Assembly: GCF_013315695.1 (NCBI RefSeq)
Contig: NZ_CP054356.1
Source: Escherichia coli
GTDB taxonomy: Bacteria; Pseudomonadota; Gammaproteobacteria; Enterobacterales; Enterobacteriaceae
DNA length: 64,000 nucleotides
Reading direction: 5' to 3' (one strand)
Below are positions 2,982 through 22,230 of the stretch, in pieces; within the stretch, counting starts at the first letter, position 1, and each line of letters starts with the position of its first letter. Below the pieces are notes generated by a model, which saw nothing but the letters and a program-made list of their open reading frames with translations, was not told where the DNA came from and did no database searches. The position numbers and the translations under genes are program-made.

Positions 2982-5969
2982 TTAAGGCTGTTTTTTGTAC
3001 TGACTGACATCAACTGCTCGCAAAGGACGATACTTCCCTTCAGCCAGCTTCTTATTGTTTTTCCAGATATAGTCCCCTGTCAGATTAATGTGCTCCCAGC
3101 CCAGCGGAGACAAATGTGACAACAATTGCTCATTAATATGTAGCCCTTTCTTTTTCAGCAGGTTAATGGCGTTTTCTATATATACGGTATTCCACAAAGT
3201 GATTGCGGCAGTGAGCAGCGTAAGCCCACTGGCGCGGTAACTCTGGTTTTCAATACCACGATCCCTTATTTCTCCCAGACGATGCATGAAGACAGCTCTG
3301 GCAAGGGCATTCCGGGCTTCCCCTTTGTTCAGACCTGCCTGAACCCTACGACGAAGCGCCGGATCGCGGAACCAGTCCAGCATGAACAGTGTTCGCTCAA
3401 TACGACCAATTTCTCTTAACGCCTTAGCAAGGCCATTCTGTTTCGGATAACTGGTCAATTTTTTCAGCATCAGAGAAGCGGTCACTGTTCCCTGTTTTAT
3501 TGAGGTCGCCAGTCTCAGAATTTCATTCCAGTGTATTTTTATCTCTTTGATATTCAGGGGGGTTGTGGAGATAATTGACTGTAGAGCAGGATAGTTATCA
3601 GCTTTACCTTGAATAAACAAACGTTTGTCATGCAGATCCCGGATCCTTGGGGCAAAAGCGAATCCCAGCAGATGCATTAGTGCAAAAACATGCTCCGTGA
3701 AACCTGCTGTATCGGTGTAATGTTCCGTTATATCAAGGTCACTTTCGTGATACAGAAGACCATCAAGTACGTGGGTGGAATCACGAACACGACTGATTAC
3801 TTTGGTATAAAACGGACTATATTGATCTGAGATATGCGTATAAAACTGCACCCCAGGTTCCTGACCGTACTTCAAATTAACCTGACCGGCATAGCGCCCA
3901 TGACTGCCAACCCTAAAATTCTGGCCGTCAGAGGATGAGGTGGAACCGTCTCCCCATAATGCCGCCAGCGGTCGTGACTTCTGGGCATTAACCAGTTCTG
4001 CCAGTGCAGCAGAGTACGTTTCATCACGGATGTACCATGCTTGTATGTTTTCCAGCGAAGCTCGTGTGGTTCCCGGACAGGACTCTGCCATTTTTTCCAA
4101 CCCTAGATTGATGCCGTCCGCCAGGATAGTGGTTAGTAGTAAACGATTATCCTGAGGACGGATTAGCGGATTCTTAAGATGAGTAAAATGTCGCGAGAAG
4201 GCAGTCCATCGCTCGACTTCATCAAGTATCTCTGTAATTTTGGGGTGCGGTAGCATGTTGTAAATCAGGTCGGCCAGGGGAGAGACTGTTGAAGGAACGC
4301 TGTTATCCAGTGGGGTGATCTTTACACCTTTATCTGAAATATCCACATCAGGAAGCTCCCCTGCGACAGCCATTGCGTTAACTTCCTCCAGACGGGAGGC
4401 CAGTAGAGTCAGTCTGGCATTAAGATAAGCCCCGCATTCTGTGCCAACAGGTAAATTTAATAGGTTATTATTTAATAACTTTTCGAAATCATCGTTAGGC
4501 ATAAGATAATCATCAAAGTTTTTGTAGCGCCGGGAGCCCCTGACCCAGATATCACCCGCCCGCAGCGCCCCCTTTAGCTCATTCATTGCGCAAATTTCAT
4601 AGTATTGTCGGTCAATGCCTGAGGGGGTGACCACCATCTTTCTCCAGCTCTCAGGAATGAAATCCAGTGGTGCCGATGCAGGAACCTTTCGTAGCTGTTT
4701 ACGGTACATATCACGAATAGTTTCAAGGGCATCATTAAGCGGCAACGCTGCCGAAGTGGCTCTCAGTTGCAGGGCCGATAGAAAACGAAAAGAATATTTG
4801 CGCAATGTACTGAATTTTTCGGTAATAAGATGAAGCGGCTCAAAATTATCCTTACGTGCAAGAAGCTTTGTTTCCTCCAGACTGGCGACAAAATCGTCCC
4901 ACGGTAACACTCGTTCAATAGCAGACAGAGGATCTTCGCCTGCATTGCGTGCATCCAGGATAGCCTGGCCAACAGAAACATACTGACGTAACTTTTGCTG
5001 TATCAACTTGCCCGTTTTCTGAAGACGCTCAGCCTGCTGATGTTTTGCCCGACTGAACATGCTGCCTAGAATACGTTCATGCAGTTCTATAATTTCATCA
5101 ATGATTGTGGCTCTGGCCTCAGTCAGTACACAGACCATCGTTGCGTATCGACGAGCAGGGGAAAAATCAGCCAGATCGCGACTGCTCATTTTGCGGCCCT
5201 CACGCGCGAGTTTCAGCAATCGGTTCTGGTGAACGGTTCTCTCCACTCCTTCCGGCAGCGCCAGAGCTTCAATAGCGTTAAGGCGGTCAATGTGTTGCAG
5301 GACATTCTTTCCATTGATTTTCCCTGGAGGTTGAAGCAGCCACGTCAAACGGGATATTTGTTTTTCATTTGTCACCAACAGGGCATCAAGCGCAGATTTA
5401 TGCGTGATATCAAGGTGCGCATTCAGCGTTGTATACACCGTTTTATCACCCAGTGTCATTGCTTCTGCACAGGTACGTTCCAGAACATCAATGCCTGGAA
5501 TAATAATTCGCTGTTGATGCAGGTACTTTAGTAACTCCTCTGCGATAAGTATGCCTCTGTCCGTTCTGGTAGACAGAGGGAGCAGATGCCGGATACATTC
5601 TTTCTGAAGTGCACCGTTAAAGGCTTTCAGTTCAAGATATCGATAAAGTTCCCTCATATGCTCACGTCTGGTGGTATCACGACCGGAAACGTATTCCTGC
5701 CAAAGTTCTGCTGATAACTTAAGTCGAGCGCCAATGGTTTTTAGCAATTTTGCGGGTGGGGATGATTTTTTATCCGGGGCAAACCCAATACTTTTCAGAT
5801 AACAGAGAAGAACGGCAAAACCAAACCGGCTGGCAGGTTTACGGTGAGCATTGATAATTGCCAGATCCTGCTCACTGAAATACGTCATTCGAGTCAGTGT
5901 TAACTCATCGTCTGGCAATGCCAGTAATGATTCTCTTTCCGATAGAGAAAGAATCTGCCTCCTTGCCAT
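2982..5969 (-). CDS. tnpA: Tn3-family transposase TnpA, 995 aa, intact
   Basis: Uninterrupted 995-aa ORF with Tn3-family transposase length and organisation, distinct in sequence from the Tn2/Tn3 TnpA at 9012-12017. Confidence 0.9.
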   Translation of the reverse strand: MARRQILSLSERESLLALPDDELTLTRMTYFSEQDLAIINAHRKPASRFGFAVLLCYLKSIGFAPDKKSSPPAKLLKTIGARLKLSAELWQEYVSGRDTTRREHMRELYRYLELKAFNGALQKECIRHLLPLSTRTDRGILIAEELLKYLHQQRIIIPGIDVLERTCAEAMTLGDKTVYTTLNAHLDITHKSALDALLVTNEKQISRLTWLLQPPGKINGKNVLQHIDRLNAIEALALPEGVERTVHQNRLLKLAREGRKMSSRDLADFSPARRYATMVCVLTEARATIIDEIIELHERILGSMFSRAKHQQAERLQKTGKLIQQKLRQYVSVGQAILDARNAGEDPLSAIERVLPWDDFVASLEETKLLARKDNFEPLHLITEKFSTLRKYSFRFLSALQLRATSAALPLNDALETIRDMYRKQLRKVPASAPLDFIPESWRKMVVTPSGIDRQYYEICAMNELKGALRAGDIWVRGSRRYKNFDDYLMPNDDFEKLLNNNLLNLPVGTECGAYLNARLTLLASRLEEVNAMAVAGELPDVDISDKGVKITPLDNSVPSTVSPLADLIYNMLPHPKITEILDEVERWTAFSRHFTHLKNPLIRPQDNRLLLTTILADGINLGLEKMAESCPGTTRASLENIQAWYIRDETYSAALAELVNAQKSRPLAALWGDGSTSSSDGQNFRVGSHGRYAGQVNLKYGQEPGVQFYTHISDQYSPFYTKVISRVRDSTHVLDGLLYHESDLDITEHYTDTAGFTEHVFALMHLLGFAFAPRIRDLHDKRLFIQGKADNYPALQSIISTTPLNIKEIKIHWNEILRLATSIKQGTVTASLMLKKLTSYPKQNGLAKALREIGRIERTLFMLDWFRDPALRRRVQAGLNKGEARNALARAVFMHRLGEIRDRGIENQSYRASGLTLLTAAITLWNTVYIENAINLLKKKGLHINEQLLSHLSPLGWEHINLTGDYIWKNNKKLAEGKYRPLRAVDVSQYKKQP

Positions 5970-6135
5970 ATAGTTATCCTTGTTAATTATTTAGTACGTT
6001 ATTTTTGATGAAAAGGTTATTGCATAAGGGTACACCCTGATGCGAGATATAAAATGTGACCTCATACAAATAATGACATAACCTATATGCGATAGAATAT
6101 ATGCAACAACCTAAATGCGACAATGCGGTGAAAAA
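5970..6135. promoter_or_regulatory. Putative res site and divergent promoters between tnpA and tnpR of the Tn5403-like element
   Basis: Intergenic position between divergently transcribed tnpA and tnpR, as in other Tn3-family elements; subsites not mapped. Confidence 0.35.
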
Positions 6136-6777
6136 ATGTTCATCAGAGCTTATTTAAGGGCGTCAACAGAAGATCAGTTTGCAGATCGAGCAAAAGAGAT
6201 GCTGGAACAGTTCGTCCAAGAACGGGGGCATAAAATTGCCAGTTATTATCGGGAGAACATAAGCGGTACAAAACTTGACCGTCCGGAACTGAAACGCTTA
6301 CTGATGGACAGTCACCGTAATGATATTTTGCTGGTCGAGCAGATAGACCGCCTGACCCGACTGAGTAACAGCGACTGGATAACGCTGAAAAAGCAGATAG
6401 AACAACACGAACTGCGGATTGTCAGTCTGGATGTTCCAACATCATGGCAAGCCCTGTCAGATAAAGATCCTTCACAATCAGATCCGATTACCCGCGCAGT
6501 GATAACTGCAATAAATAATATGCTTATAGACCTGATGGCCGCGATGTCGCATAAGGACTGGCTGAGTCGTCGCCAACGCCAAAAACAGGGAATTGAACGA
6601 GCTCATACGTTGGGTAAATACCGGGGAAAACAGGCCGATCAGGAACGTCATCAGAAAGTGTTGTACTACAGACAAGTAAAAAAACTCAGCATTAGAGAAA
6701 CAGCAGATGCAACGGGCTACAGCACTTCGCAGGTTTGTCGCATTCAGGCTCTCTATAAAGAGGTTAAACCTGATTAA
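6136..6777 (+). CDS. tnpR: Serine recombinase resolvase TnpR, about 213 aa
   Basis: N-terminal FIRAYLRASTEDQ motif with the catalytic serine region and a C-terminal HTH; start chosen at the internal ATG at 6136. Confidence 0.85.
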   Translation: MFIRAYLRASTEDQFADRAKEMLEQFVQERGHKIASYYRENISGTKLDRPELKRLLMDSHRNDILLVEQIDRLTRLSNSDWITLKKQIEQHELRIVSLDVPTSWQALSDKDPSQSDPITRAVITAINNMLIDLMAAMSHKDWLSRRQRQKQGIERAHTLGKYRGKQADQERHQKVLYYRQVKKLSIRETADATGYSTSQVCRIQALYKEVKPD

Positions 6778-6828
6778 AAAACAGCCTTAACGTACAATAT
6801 TTTCCGTTTCCCAAACGGAGCCCTATTT

Positions 6829-7060
6829 GGGTAAGTCCCTTAAAGAAGAACTCCTGCGGGGTCATATCCGGGCGGGCATCTGTTCCCTCCTCAGCTACCG
6901 CCAGCAAGAAATCACTCTGTACTGGCCGCACGATAGCGCGAATGAGATCTGGTAGCGCCTTAACGGGTAGTTTCTCTGCCACAGAAAGCAGATGATTGAA
7001 GCGTTTTTTTTCATTGGCTATAGTTGCTTTATCTTTCTTGTTTCGGTTCCAGAACATCAC
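6829..7060 (-). pseudogene. 5' portion of the unknown gene interrupted by the Tn5403-like insertion (continues at 2948)
   Basis: GTG start at 7060 with a GGAGGG Shine-Dalgarno about 9 nt upstream on the minus strand; reading frame enters the transposon IR at 6828. Confidence 0.55.
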
Positions 7061-7247: not shown

Positions 7248-8120
<873 letters not shown>

Positions 8121-8290
8121 TCAATATTATTGAAGCATTTACCAGGGTTATTGTCTCATGAGCGGATACATATTTGAATGTATTTAGAAAAATAAACAAA
8201 TAGGGGTTCCGCGCACATTTCCCCGAAAAGTGCCACCTGACGTCTAAGAAACCATTATTATCATGACATTAACCTATAAAAATAGGCGTA

Positions 8291-9011
<721 letters not shown>

Positions 9012-12000
9012 ATGCCCGTTGACTTTCTGACCACTGAGCAGACTGAAAGCTATGGCAGATTCACCGGTGAACCGGATGAGCTTCAGCTGGCACGATATTT
9101 TCACCTTGATGAAGCAGACAAGGAATTTATCGGAAAAAGCAGAGGTGATCACAACCGTCTGGGCATTGCCCTGCAAATTGGATGTGTCCGTTTTCTGGGC
9201 ACCTTCCTCACCGATATGAATCATATTCCTTCCGGCGTCCGGCATTTTACCGCCAGACAGCTCGGGATTCGTGATATCACCGTTCTTGCAGAATACGGTC
9301 AGAGGGAAAATACCCGCCGTGAGCATGCAGCGCTGATACGTCAGCACTATCAGTATCGTGAATTTGCCTGGCCCTGGACATTTCGCCTTACCCGTCTTTT
9401 ATATACCCGGAGCTGGATAAGCAACGAACGTCCTGGCCTGCTTTTCGATCTGGCGACAGGGTGGCTTATGCAACATCGTATTATTCTCCCCGGAGCCACT
9501 ACGCTGACCCGGTTGATTTCAGAGGTAAGGGAAAAGGCGACGTTGCGCCTGTGGAACAAACTGGCACTGATACCGTCAGCCGAACAGCGTTCACAGCTGG
9601 AGATGCTGCTGGGGCCAACTGATTGCAGCCGCCTGTCTTTACTGGAATCACTGAAAAAGGGCCCTGTGACCATCAGTGGTCCGGCGTTTAATGAAGCAAT
9701 TGAACGCTGGAAAACTCTGAACGATTTTGGCCTGCATGCTGAAAACCTGAGTACACTCCCGGCTGTGCGCCTGAAAAATCTCGCACGTTATGCTGGTATG
9801 ACTTCGGTGTTCAATATTGCCAGGATGTCACCGCAGAAAAGGATGGCGGTTCTGGTTGCCTTTGTCCTTGCATGGGAAACGCTGGCGCTGGATGATGCAT
9901 TGGACGTTCTGGACGCCATGCTGGCCGTTATCATCCGTGACGCCAGAAAGATTGGGCAGAAAAAACGGCTCCGCTCGCTGAAGGATCTGGATAAATCTGC
10001 ATTGGCGCTCGCCAGCGCATGTTCGTACCTGCTGAAAGAAGAAACACCGGACGAATCGATTCGTGCTGAGGTGTTCAGCTACATCCCAAGGCAAAAGCTG
10101 GCTGAAATCATCACGCTTGTCCGTGAAATTGCCCGGCCCTCAGACGATAATTTTCATGAAGAAATGGTGGAGCAGTACGGGCGCGTTCGTCGTTTCCTGC
10201 CCCATCTGCTGAATACCGTTAAATTTTCATCCGCACCTGCCGGGGTTACCACTCTGAATGCCTGTGACTACCTCAGCCGGGAGTTCAGCTCATGGCGGCA
10301 GTTTTTTGACGACGCACCAACGGAAATTATCAGTCGGTCATGGAAACGGCTGGTGATTAACAAGGAAAAACATATCACCCGCAGGGGATACACGCTCTGC
10401 TTTCTCAGTAAACTGCAGGATAGTCTGAGGCGGAGGGATGTCTACGTTACCGGCAGTAACCGGTGGGGAGATCCTCGTGCAAGATTACTACAGGGTGCTG
10501 ACTGGCAGGCAAACCGGATTAAGGTTTATCGTTCTTTGGGGCACCCGACAGACCCGCAGGAAGCAATAAAATCTCTGGGTCATCAGCTTGATAGTCGTTA
10601 CAGACAGGTTGCTGCACGTCTTTGCGAAAATGAGGCTGTCGAACTCGATGTTTCTGGCCCGAAGCCCCGGTTGACAATTTCTCCCCTCGCCAGTCTTGAT
10701 GAGCCGGACAGTCTGAAACGACTGAGCAAAATGATCAGTGATCTACTCCCTCCGGTGGATTTAACGGAGTTGCTGCTCGAAATTAACGCCCATACCGGAT
10801 TTGCTGATGAGTTTTTCCATGCTAGTGAAGCCAGTGCCAGAGTTGATGATCTGCCCGTCAGCATCAGCGCCGTGCTGATGGCTGAAGCCTGCAATATCGG
10901 TCTGGAACCACTGATCAGATCAAATGTTCCTGCACTGACCCGACACCGGCTGAACTGGACAAAAGCGAACTATCTGCGGGCTGAAACTATCACCAGCGCT
11001 AATGCCAGACTGGTTGATTTTCAGGCAACGCTGCCACTGGCACAGATATGGGGTGGAGGAGAAGTGGCATCTGCAGATGGAATGCGCTTTGTTACGCCAG
11101 TCAGAACAATCAATGCCGGACCGAACCGCAAATACTTTGGTAATAACAGAGGGATCACCTGGTACAACTTTGTGTCCGATCAGTATTCCGGCTTTCATGG
11201 CATCGTTATACCGGGGACGCTGAGGGACTCTATCTTTGTGCTGGAAGGTCTTCTGGAACAGGAGACCGGGCTGAATCCAACCGAAATTATGACCGATACA
11301 GCAGGTGCCAGCGAACTTGTCTTTGGCCTTTTCTGGCTGCTGGGATACCAGTTTTCTCCACGCCTGGCTGATGCCGGTGCTTCGGTTTTCTGGCGAATGG
11401 ACCATGATGCCGACTATGGCGTGCTGAATGATATTGCCAGAGGGCAATCAGATCCCCGAAAAATAGTCCTTCAGTGGGACGAAATGATCCGGACCGCTGG
11501 CTCCCTGAAGCTGGGCAAAGTACAGGTTTCAGTGCTGGTCCGTTCATTGCTGAAAAGTGAACGTCCTTCCGGACTGACTCAGGCAATCATTGAAGTGGGG
11601 CGCATCAACAAAACGCTGTATCTGCTTAATTATATTGATGATGAAGATTACCGCCGGCGCATTCTGACCCAGCTTAATCGGGGAGAAAGTCGCCATGCCG
11701 TTGCCAGAGCCATCTGTCACGGTCAAAAAGGTGAGATAAGAAAACGATATACCGACGGTCAGGAAGATCAACTGGGCACACTGGGGCTGGTCACTAACGC
11801 CGTCGTGTTATGGAACACTATTTATATGCAGGCAGCCCTGGATCATCTCCGGGCGCAGGGTGAAACACTGAATGATGAAGATATCGCACGCCTCTCCCCG
11901 CTTTGCCACGGACATATCAATATGCTCGGCCATTATTCCTTCACGCTGGCAGAACTGGTGACCAAAGGACATCTGAGACCATTAAAAGAGGCGTCAGAGG

Positions 12001-14614: not shown

Positions 14615-15805
14615 TTATGGGAATGGTACCATCTTTGATTCTCTGACTTTAATACCGTCCCCGGTATGGTAAATTTTATTATTAATGTTTATTGCACCTG
14701 AGTTATTCATATGAAGGAAAAAATCAGGGCTTACTATTTTTGTGTACCAGACAAGGCTGTTACTTACTCTTTCCCTGGCATAGTAAACAAAAATATTATC
14801 AGAAATTTGTTGAAGATAGTTTAATAAATTTGTGTCTGACGTAATATTTTCCTCAAGCGTTAACTTGACATCATCAGACAGTAGTACCGTATTTTCACAC
14901 AAATCCGTAAACGACTCGTACTTGTTGCATGACATAAAGTGACGCTGGTAACTATCAATAATGTCATCATCAGTATAACCGCCAATAAGAAAGTTGTGCA
15001 GGCATATATACGATTGCCACAATTCCACTACGGATTTACAAAGTGCTTTTTTCAGACTATTAGCATAGGATAATCCGGTACTGTATTTTATTCGACTGAT
15101 TTTGTTTTTTGTGCCATACAGGGTTAGTACTGCGTGTCCAGGAGCTCCGGGCAGGGTGATATCGAAAATCCTGATATCTCCTTCTGACCTGAGAGCCAGT
15201 AAAATCTCATCTATATGATTTATGCCTGTTACTATTTCACTGGATATTTCAGTATTGGCTTTTCCCTGTAACCAGTAAAGAAGGAGGGACTGTCTCTCCA
15301 TAAATTCACACAAGGAACCTTCTATGGCATCGTTCAAACTACCATGAAAGCTACATCCGCATGTATCTCTGTCAGGATAAAATTTCAGATCATCTGCAGC
15401 GGTTATATTGTCGAGTGCAATTATGACTGCAGGTATTTCTTGTTGTTCAAGGCTAAACAGATTAAAGGCTCTGACCGTTTTAAATTTATGGGTTATGATT
15501 TCATCGCGGGTCAGTGATGAGATCTGAAAAAATGCTTCGGTAAAAGCCTTTGCAGCAGATGGAGGCATCATCTCATATAATGTTTTCTGACCACCGGTGA
15601 CTATCTCATTAAAAAAATGACGGCGTTCAAAATATTCACCTATTGCCCCCTGAATTGACTTCAGAGTTTCACCGGCCGCGCTGGCTGGTGTAATACGCTC
15701 ATAGTCCCATATCTGAGAAAACGTTGGCATATTTCTGTTCAGTTTTGGACTCATGGCCATTGTGGCCGGCCATGCGGACATAAGGTTACTGTAGACATTT
15801 ATCAT
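14615..15805 (-). CDS. mcbD: Microcin B17 synthetase McbD (YcaO-type cyclodehydratase), 396 aa
   Basis: Size and position match McbD in the canonical operon. Confidence 0.85.
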   Translation of the reverse strand: MINVYSNLMSAWPATMAMSPKLNRNMPTFSQIWDYERITPASAAGETLKSIQGAIGEYFERRHFFNEIVTGGQKTLYEMMPPSAAKAFTEAFFQISSLTRDEIITHKFKTVRAFNLFSLEQQEIPAVIIALDNITAADDLKFYPDRDTCGCSFHGSLNDAIEGSLCEFMERQSLLLYWLQGKANTEISSEIVTGINHIDEILLALRSEGDIRIFDITLPGAPGHAVLTLYGTKNKISRIKYSTGLSYANSLKKALCKSVVELWQSYICLHNFLIGGYTDDDIIDSYQRHFMSCNKYESFTDLCENTVLLSDDVKLTLEENITSDTNLLNYLQQISDNIFVYYARERVSNSLVWYTKIVSPDFFLHMNNSGAININNKIYHTGDGIKVRESKMVPFP

Positions 15806-17519: not shown

Positions 17520-17729
17520 TCAGATATGTGAACCACTTCCGCCGCTGCCACCGTTTCCACCACTACAACCGTTGCTGCAACCACCACAACCGCCACCTTG
17601 ACCACCGCAGCTACCGCCGCCGCCGCCGCCGCCACCACCACCAATGCCAACACCTAATGGAGACTGGCGTGATAATTTAAGAGCATCAACGGACAAAACT
17701 ACACCAAATTCACTCGCTTTTAATTCCAT
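17520..17729 (-). CDS. mcbA: Microcin B17 precursor peptide McbA, 69 aa
   Basis: Translation MELKASEFGVVLSVDALKLSRQSPLGVGIGGGGGGGGGGSCGGQGGGCGGCSNGCSGGNGGSGGSGSHI is the recalled pro-MccB17 (leader plus Gly/Ser/Cys core). Confidence 0.95.
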   Translation of the reverse strand: MELKASEFGVVLSVDALKLSRQSPLGVGIGGGGGGGGGGSCGGQGGGCGGCSNGCSGGNGGSGGSGSHI

Positions 17730-17982
17730 AAGGACTCCTTTTTTAAGGGAAATTAATGCTTATGACATCTGAATAGTATGTTGGCCAACACTAGTTACTT
17801 GCCGTCATTAACTATATTTTGCAATGATAATTTGAACTAAATTTGTACGCCTGTTAAATATTTAATAATAATATCAGTTGGTTATGTTTATGCTGTTATT
17901 GTTTTTTTACAAAAATTAATATTGTGTTTACATTTTGCTTTCAGTTGCTGTCAGGATGTCACACTACCCCTTTAAGCCCCCA

Positions 17983-18068
17983 CTGGTCTGGCAGGGCCGG
18001 GGGTGGGTAAGGTGAAACCTGTCAATCAGTACCGGCTTACGCCGGTATCATATGCAACAACTGAGTGC
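17983..18068. repeat. Imperfect direct repeat, copy B (matches 1578-1700)
   Basis: About 85 bp alignable to copy A with one roughly 19-bp indel and scattered substitutions. Confidence 0.5.
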
Positions 18069-18228
18069 CGCCTTCCATATCATATCATTTGCCCGTTTCC
18101 CGCCGTGCAGATCCGGTTTCCGGCTGAAGTGGATCCAGACCTGATTTGTTGCTGAGTATCGGTAAAAGAGCGGCTTATAATCTATTCTGAAACATGGCAA
18201 GTGAATCTGGGCTGTATAATTCCGGCAA

Positions 18229-18711
18229 GTGTCATCTGTATTTAAAGGTCGTGTGAGTATGAAATTTATGGAATGTGCTGTCCGGGATGTGATTTATGGG
18301 ACCAATGTCCGTATTGTCAAACCGGTCAACATTTATGAATGTGAACTCAGGGACAATGTGTTTGTCGGCCCCTTCGTTGAGATACAGAAAGGCTGTGTCA
18401 TTGGTAGTGGAAGCCGGATACAGTCGCACACGTTTATTTGTGAGAACGTAACACTGGGGGAGAACTGCTTCATTGGTCATAACGTGACGTTCGCCAACGA
18501 TCTGTTTCGTTCAGGAGCACCAGATCCGTCACCGGATAACTGGATCAGCATTACCCTGGGGGATTCGGTTACTGTTGGCAGTGGAGCCATTATTCTGTCT
18601 CCGTATATATGCAGCGGAGCTGTTATTGGTGCGGGGGCAGTTGTAGTAAAACCGATTGAGAACAAAGGCATTTATGCAGGAAACCCGGCAAGACTGATCA
18701 GAATATTATGA
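18229..18711 (+). CDS. Hexapeptide-repeat (left-handed beta-helix) acyl/acetyltransferase, about 150-160 aa; start uncertain (18229, 18259 or 18268)
   Basis: Repeated [LIV]-G-x-x-x-x hexapeptide units (IGSGSRI, IGHNVTF, VGSGAIIL, IGAGAVVV) and a C-terminal YAGNPARLI motif typical of this acetyltransferase family. Confidence 0.6.
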   Translation: MSSVFKGRVSMKFMECAVRDVIYGTNVRIVKPVNIYECELRDNVFVGPFVEIQKGCVIGSGSRIQSHTFICENVTLGENCFIGHNVTFANDLFRSGAPDPSPDNWISITLGDSVTVGSGAIILSPYICSGAVIGAGAVVVKPIENKGIYAGNPARLIRIL

Positions 18712-19113
18712 AAAAGAAAAGGGCCGTTACTGGCCCTTTTTATCAGAGGTAGGTCTGTGAATACGGCAGGTGTACAGAAATCGACTGCCGGGGATCGATT
18801 TCCAGGGCCGCCCGGTATTCTGCGTCAGTGATATCACCTTTTTTCAGTAAATAACCGAGAGCATCGTTTCCCAGCCCTGACAGTATGCGTATTCTGGCGA
18901 TCCGGACTGGCAAATAACCCATCAAAAACGTTATTGCCAGACATTGCGAACTCACCAATTTTGATTATTGGAGCCACTTTTTCATAAGTTCCGTGAAATT
19001 ATTTCATAATAACGACCCTGTTTATTTTATGTAATGACTGGCAATAAAATAACTTGATTAAGTTCCCTTTATCCAGCCTGATAGTGGATAAAGGAAACTC
19101 AATCATAATTTAA

Positions 19114-19467
19114 TTAGTTTATTAACTTCATCGCATTCTTTTTTGTCTCCTCATCACTTTTTTGCTCCGATTGTGAAGAGGACTGAATGATTGTTGAAGA
19201 ATTTAAATCGGCCATCTCTTTTGGAAATAGCGATCTCAATATATTCACGATATCTGAAAATGTGGTTTCTTTCGTCAGCAGTTCACATAAAAGGAAAGGG
19301 GCCCTGGGATCTTGTCTGTATAAGGCCAGACCTGCCGTCAGTGCAGCCCGGTTAAGGCGGCTGCGTTCCCCTTGCGGGATACTGTCCAGTGTATCACAAA
19401 CAATTTTATCTGTTTGATTTACATCTGGATTTAGCTTAAAGGCAATGGTTCTGCGCTTGTCCATCAT
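19114..19467 (-). CDS. parR: Plasmid partition centromere-binding protein ParR (StbB), 117 aa
   Basis: Translation [55 protein letters not shown]... matches the recalled R1/R100 ParR. Confidence 0.85.
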   Translation of the reverse strand: MMDKRRTIAFKLNPDVNQTDKIVCDTLDSIPQGERSRLNRAALTAGLALYRQDPRAPFLLCELLTKETTFSDIVNILRSLFPKEMADLNSSTIIQSSSQSEQKSDEETKKNAMKLIN

Positions 19468-20429
19468 TAATTACCTATGAGATACATACCGTTAACTAAA
19501 TCATATTGAGAGTTATTGGTTTTAAAAAAACGTTCATCACGAATCTGTGTGTGTTTTTTTACTGCATCGCATATTAATTCTGCGCCACCACCTATAACCA
19601 TAACATGAGTATAACCAGAAAATTCATTGAGTGTATTTAATACACGTTGCTCAAGTTTACGAAGTGCTTCATTCATTGCTTCGGTGACTATTGATATTTT
19701 ATTCTCATCATTAATTCGTTGCTTCAGATAGTTATTATCTTTTCTGTGAATAATTATATCGTCAGCAAGATAGCTACTTCCTTTTGTTCTCGCAAGAGAA
19801 AGGGCATCTTTTACTGCAGATGTGACCAGAGATACACCAAGAGATGAGTCTCCGTATATTTTACTGATTCCCGATAATTTCCCCATTACCTGAGAAATAT
19901 CTAATGTGGTGCCCCCGAGATCTATAATTAATAAAGAATCTAACTCATCCAGTTCTTGTAGAACTTCATAACCTGCCGGTATAGATTCAGGCATGACTTT
20001 TACATCTTTTATTGTGAATGTATCCCCACCATTTAATGTAATTTTTTTCCGGAAGTTTGCTTTCTTACGCTCAATATTTTCCGTATTGGGTTGGTTATTC
20101 CTGTCGTAATACTCTGTCAGAGGAAGTGTGCAAACAATATCCACTTCGCTTACCGGCAGACCACTGGTCAGTAAGGCGTGGTGCACCGCAACGACATTAA
20201 CGTCGCTGTATTGCCATGCGATATTGGTTGTGACTACAGCATCCGGGCTGATTGGATCAAATGAATACTGTTCGCCGTTCAGTGTGTAGTTAAAGACCTT
20301 TTTATCACCAAAAGAAACTGCCCACTCGCGTTTGAAGCTGTTCGGGCTAATGTGCTGTTTAATTGTTCCGTCGCTTTCCTGCCACTGTAGTTTGATGTTT
20401 GTTGAACCGTCATCAATGAATACCAACAT
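19467..20429 (-). CDS. parM: Actin-like partition ATPase ParM (StbA), 320 aa
   Basis: Translation [42 protein letters not shown]... matches the recalled R1 ParM; stop of parM abuts the parR start. Confidence 0.9.
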
Positions 20430-20600: not shown

Positions 20601-20610
20601 ATAACAAAAG

Positions 20611-20920
20611 ATGTCGCCGGGCTCCTCTTTTTACTGCGCCGGCTGACGCGGCGCGGCAGGAACGCTGCCTGTGGTCAGTGTCCCGCGTCCGGCCGGGCAC
20701 GGGACGGGCGCTTTTACCGCTCCCGGCTGGCGTCGGTGACAGTGTACGCCAGCCCGTCGCCCTTTTCTGATGAGCGCCCTTCAAGCCGCTTTCGCGGCAT
20801 AGCCTTGCCGTCAAAAAGACGACGGCTGCGGTATTCCACGGTCGGCCTGACCCGTTACCGGGCGCGGTGAACAGCCCACAGGCAGCGGGGAACGGGCGCC
20901 ACAGGGGCGCCCTCCCGATG
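20611..20920. repeat. Leading-region repeat family R1, copy a (about 310 bp, GC-rich, hairpin-rich)
   Basis: Near-identical to 21916-22230; each copy sits directly upstream of a plus-strand ORF; a short partial match occurs at 24473-24510. Confidence 0.5.
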
Positions 20921-20940
20921 CTCCTGTGAGGATAATTCCC

Positions 20941-21867: not shown

Positions 21868-21915
21868 AGTATGACGGAGACGGGCGGGCAACCGCCCGTT
21901 TCTTTTCCGGTAAAG

Positions 21916-22230
21916 GATGTCGCCGTGCTCCTCTTTTTACTGCGCCGGCTGACGCGGCGCGGCATAAACGCTGCCTGTGGTCAGTGTCCCGCGTCCGGTG
22001 GGCACGGGACGGGCGCTTTTACCGCTCCCGGCTGGCGTCGGTGACAGTGTACGCCAGCCTGTCGCCCTTTTCTGATGAACGCCCTTCAAGCCGCTTTCGC
22101 GGCATAGCCTTGCCGTCAGAAAGACGACGGCTGCGGTATTCCACGGTCGGCCTGACCCGTTACCGGACGCGGTGAACAGCCCACAGGCAGCGGGGAACGG
22201 GCACCACAGGGGTGCCCTCCCGGTGCCCTC
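21916..22230. repeat. Leading-region repeat family R1, copy b
   Basis: See copy a; ends at the AAGGAG RBS of the methyltransferase gene. Confidence 0.5.

Follow-up and report, generated by a model that had tools for sequence, protein, structure and literature searches.

The solved enzymes closest to the protein described here are FdtD (its N-terminal domain), QdtC, WlbB and the dTDP-3-amino-3,6-dideoxyglucose N-acetyltransferase of Helicobacter pullorum, all of them left-handed beta-helix (LbH) N-acetyltransferases for 3-amino sugars, which act on dTDP- or UDP-linked sugars and are encoded in O-antigen or S-layer glycan clusters. CatB and Vat have the LbH fold and acetyl-CoA-dependent transfer in common with them and are often plasmid- or integron-borne single genes, while ApmA, an LbH acetyltransferase that inactivates apramycin, is a precedent for stand-alone LbH resistance to a free amino-sugar or aminocyclitol antibiotic (PMC7885111). 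A 3-amino sugar is also made by the KabABC/NtdABC proteins of Bacillus cereus and Bacillus subtilis, where KabC/NtdC, KabA/NtdA and KabB/NtdB lead from glucose-6-phosphate through 3-oxo-glucose-6-phosphate and kanosamine-6-phosphate to kanosamine (PMC8788734). Here we describe the gene for an LbH acyltransferase in a 64,000-nucleotide stretch of Escherichia coli DNA (assembly GCF_013315695.1, contig NZ_CP054356.1; hereafter the window), an IncF-type plasmid segment with the microcin B17 operon on its minus strand, in which the gene is placed between mcbA and parR/parM. We put at roughly 60% the probability that the protein is an amino-sugar N-acetyltransferase of a kab-like gene cassette, stranded in the window by deletion. 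Its predicted activity is like that of FdtD and the other three enzymes; it differs from them in being shorter (150 aa) and in having a sugar-phosphate pathway beside it in its native setting.

Enzyme class of the acyltransferase

The mechanically called open reading frame (ORF; 18229-18711, plus strand) has 160 aa from a GTG, but RefSeq entries for identical plasmids and the aligned homologs alike put the start at the ATG at 18259, for a product of 150 aa, which is identical to WP_000670962.1 and is annotated in hundreds of public records as plain 'acyltransferase'. The preliminary description of this gene, made from the DNA letters, was right in calling it a hexapeptide-repeat acyltransferase of about 150 aa between the mcb region and parMR: PF00132 (Hexapep), the sole Pfam find in the protein, scores 57 bits over three stretches of it (cut-off 27; E 1e-15), and the fold is that of the LbH superfamily. 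The AlphaFold2 model that we used covers the monomer and was built on a 64-sequence alignment (pLDDT 96), a poor model from 28 close homologs (pLDDT 65) having been set aside; a homotrimeric state would be expected from the fold family. Among the PADLOC anti-phage models, no family matched the protein at E <= 0.01.

Since fold alone separates the LbH classes poorly, as exemplified by a Foldseek ranking in which the gamma-carbonic-anhydrase-like YrdA is mixed with WlbB and FdtD, the class assignment rests on a profile search. A profile built from 64 family members and relatives was run against the solved LbH enzymes, with FdtD (E 5e-32), the H. pullorum enzyme (6e-32), QdtC (5e-27) and WlbB (7e-26) leading all others by 6-12 orders of magnitude; further down came maltose transacetylase (8e-20, the sixth PDB hit), GlmU (1e-18), CatB8 (4e-15) and VioB (2e-13). 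All four leading matches acetylate the C-3 amino group of a hexose. In addition, Asn80, one of three invariant columns in the 64 sequences, aligns with the Asn of TFTND, FCNDK, LTND and FTNV in these enzymes, and we take it that the Asn of this F-T-N-D loop orients or contacts the sugar amine in QdtC and WlbB. Independent evidence of the 'Rosetta stone' kind comes from the closest clusters outside the family (45-55% identity), in which the long proteins have this domain fused to DegT aminotransferases (4), an FdtA isomerase or a formyltransferase; judging by these partners, the acceptor is almost certainly an amine from a DegT-type aminotransferase, which in the native cassette (see below) is the KabA/NtdA homolog. 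As the context in 7 genera is a Kab/Ntd sugar-phosphate pathway that comes with neither a nucleotidyltransferase nor a 4,6-dehydratase, and not the nucleotide-sugar setting that defines the group, we describe the acyltransferase as working like QdtC, FdtD and WlbB and not as a member of their group.

The preliminary description had offered antibiotics or sugars as substrates. Judged by model scores and profile E values, the sequence evidence points to N-acetylation of an amino sugar and away from both the CatB/Vat antibiotic type and sugar O-acetylation. A xenobiotic acetyltransferase of the CatB/Vat type, conferring resistance to chloramphenicol or streptogramin A, would fit the shared LbH superfamily, the carriage on conjugative plasmids and weak C-terminal matches to the Vat and CatB models (E 1e-6). 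We consider it close to refuted: the NCBIfam scores are far under cut-off (CatB 26.8 vs. 350 bits; Vat 27.5 vs. 300 bits), with residues ~98-148 alone aligning where a full-length match of ~210 aa is required. A sugar O-acetyltransferase resembling WbbJ, WcaF, Maa, LacA or NodL, acting on a polysaccharide or a free sugar hydroxyl, is likewise very improbable; maltose transacetylase does appear among the profile hits and there are weak matches to WbbJ (39.8 vs. 243 bits), WcaF (37.1 vs. 192), Maa (33 vs. 314) and LacA (32.4 vs. 347), but these are far under family cut-offs of 183-347 bits and cover the C-terminal third alone, no polysaccharide genes lie nearby in any context examined, and the aminotransferase fusions imply an amine acceptor. 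The NeuD/PglB/VioB class (TIGR03570; 59.9 vs. 160.8 bits) was also rejected, as only the last ~48 residues match, at model positions 154-202, and the 150-aa protein has no N-terminal domain. Any resistance or immunity role would presumably be directed against an amino-sugar product and not against chloramphenicol or streptogramins.

The six-gene cassette and its predicted chemistry

In the plasmids pRM11911, pEA26_3 and pSTEC2018_166-c, the acyltransferase gene converges on a five-gene operon that encodes 1) a DegT-family aminotransferase (408 aa; KabA/NtdA-like), 2) a HAD-IIB hydrolase (275 aa; KabB/NtdB-like phosphatase), 3) a Gfo/Idh/MocA oxidoreductase (338 aa; KabC/NtdC-like dehydrogenase), 4) a SemiSWEET (89 aa) and 5) an FMO-like monooxygenase (510 aa). 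The same six genes are found on a Pectobacterium brasiliense contig, with 94% identity for the acyltransferase and 85-92% for the other cassette proteins. To guard against circularity, we restarted the search from homologs of the FMO, and 4 out of 4 look-ups returned the same six genes in the same order with a convergent gap of 28-31 bp, at loci of Pantoea ananatis (FMO identity 63%), Erwinia amylovora (75%), Plesiomonas shigelloides (85%) and Photobacterium damselae (88%) whose flanking genes are wholly different. Altogether, the six-gene cassette was seen in 7 genera, including the plasmids of E. coli and E. albertii, with partial cassettes in Cedecea sulfonylureivorans and Edwardsiella ictaluri. 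The absence of a partner gene, stated in the preliminary description, therefore holds for the window, where tblastn recovers one fragment, and fails elsewhere, where the gene is the end gene of a conserved cassette.

The cassette setting does not extend to FMO homologs of 54% identity or lower, which are therefore uninformative for the acyltransferase; Yersinia canariae has the FMO alone. At 39-43% identity, the homologs of Actinacidiphila and Marinomonas (around 8001-9600 of their stretches) occur with a radical SAM protein, a GT2 glycosyltransferase, a PIG-L deacetylase, GH3 and MFS proteins, a gene set which appears to be another sugar-amine context for this monooxygenase family.

The assignment of the operon to the kanosamine pathway draws on the matches of its first three products. 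For the aminotransferase, KabA (7kz3, E 1e-90) and NtdA (4k2b, E 8e-88) stand well ahead of other sugar aminotransferases (~1e-50); for the hydrolase, NtdB (3gyg) matches at E 5e-46 and the next match at 1e-6; and the oxidoreductase has its closest solved relatives among enzymes for the C-3 oxidation of glucose derivatives, such as levoglucosan dehydrogenase and glycoside 3-dehydrogenases. Compared with a trio on a B. cereus plasmid, the aminotransferase, hydrolase and dehydrogenase are 44%, 37% and 35% identical, near full length and in the same order; that trio lies beside non-ribosomal peptide synthetase genes in the position and order of kabA/kabB/kabC, names that we have assigned, the record being annotated generically. 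We conclude that the cassette is a Kab/Ntd-type (3-amino-3-deoxy-D-glucose) pathway extended by the SemiSWEET, the FMO and the acyltransferase. KabABC/NtdABC and the cassette have the A-B-C order in common, followed in each case by a transporter gene. In contrast, the Bacillus loci carry an MFS transporter and a LacI regulator and have neither an FMO nor an LbH acetyltransferase, whereas the enterobacterial cassette adds the SemiSWEET, the FMO and the convergent acyltransferase; given these additions to the Kab/Ntd core, the end product is probably a modified kanosamine.

Operon genes 1-3 would thus convert glucose-6-phosphate to kanosamine (3-amino-3-deoxy-D-glucose). The FMO, which has a weak Pfam match to Lys_Orn_oxgnase, is by family most plausibly an amine oxygenase and would probably oxygenate the amine of kanosamine, with the SemiSWEET probably carrying the sugar across the membrane. 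As a small LbH enzyme dependent on acetyl-CoA, the acyltransferase would place an acetyl group on the amine at C-3 of an amino sugar, most likely on the 3-amino (or 3-hydroxylamino) group of kanosamine, kanosamine 6-phosphate or the FMO product, so that we infer kanosamine, its phosphate or an FMO-modified form to be the substrate. Along its entire length, the cassette SemiSWEET (pRM11911 stretch, 9195-9464) matches the E. coli SemiSWEET of the crystal structures 4x5m/4x5n (E 3e-52). The structure paper on EcSemiSWEET recorded no more than slow transport of sucrose and doubted sucrose as the physiological substrate (PMC4309421); judging by the neighbouring genes, kanosamine or one of its derivatives would be a candidate.

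The cassette is apparently uncharacterised so far. Our literature search on the six genes found no paper describing them, only the passing words 'ntdABC ... as well as phnO' for an E. coli plasmid of ~120 kb in a paper on the pAA plasmid of enteroaggregative E. coli (PMC5320562). This 'phnO' may be an automatic name for the LbH acyltransferase, which has a weak match to TIGR03308, a phosphonate-associated hexapeptide model.

A cassette remnant in a mosaic patch

What the window holds is a remnant of the cassette and not the cassette: the convergent hairpin and 53 codons of the FMO are kept, the five partner genes are absent, and tblastn with the five cassette proteins found one fragment only, the FMO stub. 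The features are collected in Table 1. The acyltransferase gene is carried on an 829-bp mosaic patch whose borders were drawn by megablast of the flanks against 72,556 plasmids and then by direct plasmid comparison. Similarity to pSTEC1024_2, an mcb plasmid without the acyltransferase, stops at 18078; similarity to plasmids with the acyltransferase beside an intact monooxygenase spans the whole patch; and similarity to parMR plasmids without the acyltransferase starts at 18897. The GC content of the patch (47.3%) fits that of the cassette (47.5%) rather than that of the flanks (38-41%), in keeping with the mosaic origin. An identical 1371-bp arrangement is present in 87 plasmid records, nearly all from E. 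coli, and as these independent records share the 53-codon match and the breakpoints, an assembly artefact is unlikely.

Table 1. Features of the mosaic patch and its surroundings (positions in the window)
Feature	Position	Strand	Description
mcbA	17520-17729	-	left-hand neighbour of the acyltransferase gene
Mosaic patch	18078-18906		829 bp
Left junction	18078-18124		47 bp; IncI/IncK/ColV-type backbone flanking the cassette insertion site, present there without the acyltransferase
5' flank travelling with the acyltransferase gene	18125-18258	+	two perfect TATAAT hexamers, 18176-18181 and 18215-18220
Acyltransferase coding sequence	18259-18711	+	150 aa; LbH; 3-amino-sugar N-acetyltransferase-like class (predicted)
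GC-rich hairpin	18717-18740		GGGCC-6 nt-GGCCC with T/A runs on both sides; from terminator scan; 3' of the acyltransferase stop
FMO 3' remnant	18743-18904	-	last 53 of 510 codons and stop
71-aa ORF	18743-18958	-	not a gene
Right junction	18897-18906		10-bp overlap; cassette homology to 18906, parR-side backbone from 18897
Backbone-gene 5' stub	18903-18944	-	~14 codons, MSGNNVFDGLFASP; parR-adjacent; cut by the right junction; other frame than the 71-aa ORF
parR/parM	19114-20429	-	right-hand neighbours

The preliminary description had suspected a gene fragment in the 71-aa minus-strand ORF downstream, and this was borne out. By BLASTP, residues 19-71 are 53/53 identical to the C-terminus (residues 458-510) of WP_001017349.1, an FMO-type oxidoreductase of 510 aa (tblastn puts the remnant at 18904-18746), while the first 18 codons read by chance through what is left of the 5' end of an unrelated backbone gene. 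The intact gene, present in pNDM-SDCRK18-7, has 136 aa beginning MSGNNVFDGLFASPER, and another ORF, at 18834-18977, includes MSGNNVFDGLFASPDR of the stub.

On the 5' side of the acyltransferase gene, a promoter consensus scan of the flank gave nothing above shuffles or chance; the proximal ~60 bp of this flank can be aligned among the loci of the cassette clade (defined below), and the gene would be expressed from it. On the 3' side, the hairpin is predicted to be the shared terminator of the convergent gene pair, its stem being retained with differing loops in Pectobacterium, Plesiomonas, Photobacterium and Pantoea; Rfam models run on 17600-19300 gave sub-threshold chance matches only. The acyltransferase is the sixth cassette gene, transcribed towards the operon and having the hairpin terminator in common with it; in the proposed sequence of events, deletion or recombination left only the gene, its own 5' flank, the terminator and the last 53 FMO codons between the microcin B17 module and parMR.

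In IncI/IncK/ColV-type plasmids, the 47 bp of the left junction have a site-specific integrase gene and two hypothetical genes next to them, and in pGM351-2 they occur alone, adjoining hyp196/hyp85. This unannotated pair, encoding proteins of 196 aa and 85 aa (pRM11911 stretch, 6008-6855), is always at the cassette insertion site in these plasmids and adjoins the colicin Ia immunity/DUF6404 genes; the 85-aa protein varies from 56% to 100% between plasmids, and neither protein has a Pfam or NCBIfam match. To the left of the junction, ~95 bp (17984-18078) have partial copies in a ColV plasmid, at 2576-2691 (73%) and 14707-14750 (89%) of its stretch, and in IncI1 plasmids the final 42 bp are found again within the gene for a small 'hypothetical protein'; this segment may be a recurrent recombination site.

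Beyond the patch, near parM, a DUF1281 gene is flanked by two direct copies of ~315 bp (20606-20921 and 21912-22226; 87 nt at 95% and 227 nt at 97%). When one of them is folded as single-stranded DNA, a long and imperfect hairpin results (-91.6 kcal/mol, z -4.5), and we see in the element a likeness to Frpo/ssi, the single-strand promoters found in F-like leading regions.

Distribution, decay and a possible protective role

Homologs of the acyltransferase number in the hundreds, always about 150 aa long and 58-99% identical. The family is compact, in that no more than 29 of the 50%-identity clusters, out of 1.84 billion representatives, reach E 1e-30, and there are 373 confirmed loci in 100,044 species genomes, commonly in Enterobacterales, Vibrionaceae and Aeromonas. 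The gene is under purifying selection, with dN/dS against the window copy of 0.04-0.14 where dS is measurable, cassette-less copies included. In a neighbour-joining tree, the cassette-linked copies are all placed in a single clade (at least 72% identical to the window copy), and within it they interleave with cassette-less ones from Salmonella, Cedecea, Brenneria, Klebsiella, Superficieibacter, a second locus of Photobacterium damselae and an E. coli tRNA-Phe island. The Salmonella orphan still has the hairpin and ~45 bp of a degraded FMO 3' end, overlain by its 67-aa downstream ORF. This remnant, together with the interleaving, argues that orphaning happened repeatedly.

It is improbable, in our estimation, that the protein is a stand-alone housekeeping or detoxifying acetyltransferase which was merely co-mobilised with the cassette and whose substrate has nothing to do with kanosamine. 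Copies at about 70 of the 80 best genomic loci do lack the cassette or any conserved neighbour, and chromosomal syntenic copies exist in several genera; clustering the neighbours of these 80 loci gave no neighbour common to more than 15, the shared ones reflecting lineage synteny. A conserved partner was also sought at the first three loci and was not found, the upstream ORFs of 142/156 aa and downstream ORFs of 64/67 aa being mutually unrelated and one of them a resolvase fragment. Against this explanation, all cassettes reached from the FMO side carry the acyltransferase at the convergent spacing of 28-31 bp with a conserved hairpin, down to an FMO identity of 62%, and the enzyme class fits the cassette chemistry, a 3-amino-sugar acetyltransferase standing beside a 3-amino-sugar pathway.

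Part of the 5.56-kb cassette is present in 699 out of 5,426 complete genomes of E. coli, but just 65 of them have 80% or more of it. Among plasmid records, the acyltransferase is full-length in 359/366 and the FMO at least 80% complete in 72/504, counts that reflect a few successful clonal lineages and not independent events. Decay has left the acyltransferase alone in ColV plasmids and islands; the acyltransferase with 53 FMO codons in mcb plasmids, including the window; the acyltransferase with 71 FMO codons, the SemiSWEET and part of the dehydrogenase in the ColV plasmid of ATCC 11775; and, in some ColV-type plasmids, a piece with FMO, SemiSWEET and dehydrogenase sequence in which the acyltransferase is missing.

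As to what the stranded copy does, we lean slightly towards a detoxifying or immunity enzyme that would act alone against the amino-sugar product of cassette carriers, over a tailoring enzyme. A protective role would explain the separate and opposed transcription unit, the survival and constraint of orphans and the existence of the gene as an integron cassette; the last is seen in Vibrio europaeus, where the chromosomal integron array includes a homolog with 60% identity as a one-gene cassette (5850-6556 of the stretch), bounded by attC-like repeats of ~125 nt that recur 10 times at a spacing of ~440-850 bp. Colicin and microcin systems have orphan immunity genes, protective genes that persist and spread after separation from the genes for production. 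By analogy, mcb plasmids, ColV plasmids and islands carry an intact acyltransferase gene where the production genes are truncated; the likeness is imperfect, since cassette remnants without the acyltransferase also exist, and immunity is here a matter of analogy only.

A tailoring role would explain the constant membership of the gene in the cassette. On this account, which we hold possible but clearly less probable than our preferred one, the protein would be purely a tailoring enzyme making an N-acetyl (or N-acetyl-N-hydroxy, hydroxamate-like) amino sugar, possibly by N-acetylation after N-hydroxylation by the FMO, and the window copy, having no substrate when the other five genes are gone, would be a functionless passenger not yet decayed. 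In its favor, the acyltransferase is a constant cassette member in 7 genera, and an FMO-type N-hydroxylase with a weak Lys_Orn_oxgnase match next to an acetyltransferase follows the logic of hydroxamate formation, known from IucD/IucB. In addition, the E. coli alleles differ by 2-4 residues only, too few to reveal selection since orphaning; remnants without the acyltransferase exist; and E. coli tolerates kanosamine at grams per liter, so that immunity may be unnecessary. Speaking against it are 1) the transcription unit of its own, on the opposite strand, in every instance; 2) the older orphans of Salmonella (91%), Cedecea (93%), Brenneria (85%), Klebsiella (83%) and Superficieibacter (79%), which are full-length with all conserved residues; and 3) the sister clades and the Vibrio integron cassette, from which it appears that the family works alone.

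Several observations weigh against our preferred reading of a stranded amino-sugar N-acetyltransferase, or against the leaning to immunity. With regard to enzyme class, no NCBIfam model reaches its cut-off; His57 and His74, near-invariant in the family, are absent from FdtD and WlbB, and the catalytic mechanism may differ accordingly; and the solved relatives use nucleotide-linked sugars, while the Kab/Ntd pathway deals in sugar phosphates and a free sugar. With regard to the cassette, the link is one of convergent adjacency and not of co-transcription, and our literature search found no biochemical or genetic test of any of its genes. The sister clades, at 58-75% identity and making up most of the wider family, are never cassette-linked, which argues for a family function independent of the cassette, and the copies of Kluyvera, Raoultella and Citrobacter lie between malEFG-psiE and yjbFGH or pgi, a core region. 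The clonal nature of the plasmid counts belongs here too, and the ColV-type remnants without the acyltransferase speak against selective retention. Finally, when given ntdABC of B. subtilis, E. coli builds up kanosamine to 12.7-18 g/l although an acetyltransferase is absent (PMC8788734), and this tolerance indicates that plain kanosamine needs no immunity.

A wider scheme, which we offer as speculative and rather unlikely as a whole, is that the cassette makes an N-oxygenated and/or N-acetylated kanosamine metabolite exported by EcSemiSWEET for competition among enterobacteria, the acyltransferase being the immunity determinant and its copies stranded on chromosomal islands and on microcin B17 and ColV plasmids being orphan immunity genes. 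In this scheme, kanamycin-class aminoglycosides might also be acetylated as a by-product, at the 3''-amine of their kanosamine ring.

With the question of antibiotic versus sugar largely settled, the gene is not a hidden cat or vat gene on an IncF plasmid of clinical type, and the feature in the window is itself ordinary, an intact gene of a well-known superfamily with two gene stubs from plasmid mosaicism. The intact cassette outside the window is the more interesting object: tracing the acyltransferase exposes a conserved kanosamine-type cassette, apparently uncharacterised, that is also present in pathogens of plants and fish (Erwinia amylovora, Pantoea ananatis, Pectobacterium and Photobacterium damselae), and whose gene context may give a concrete candidate substrate for the crystallised EcSemiSWEET.

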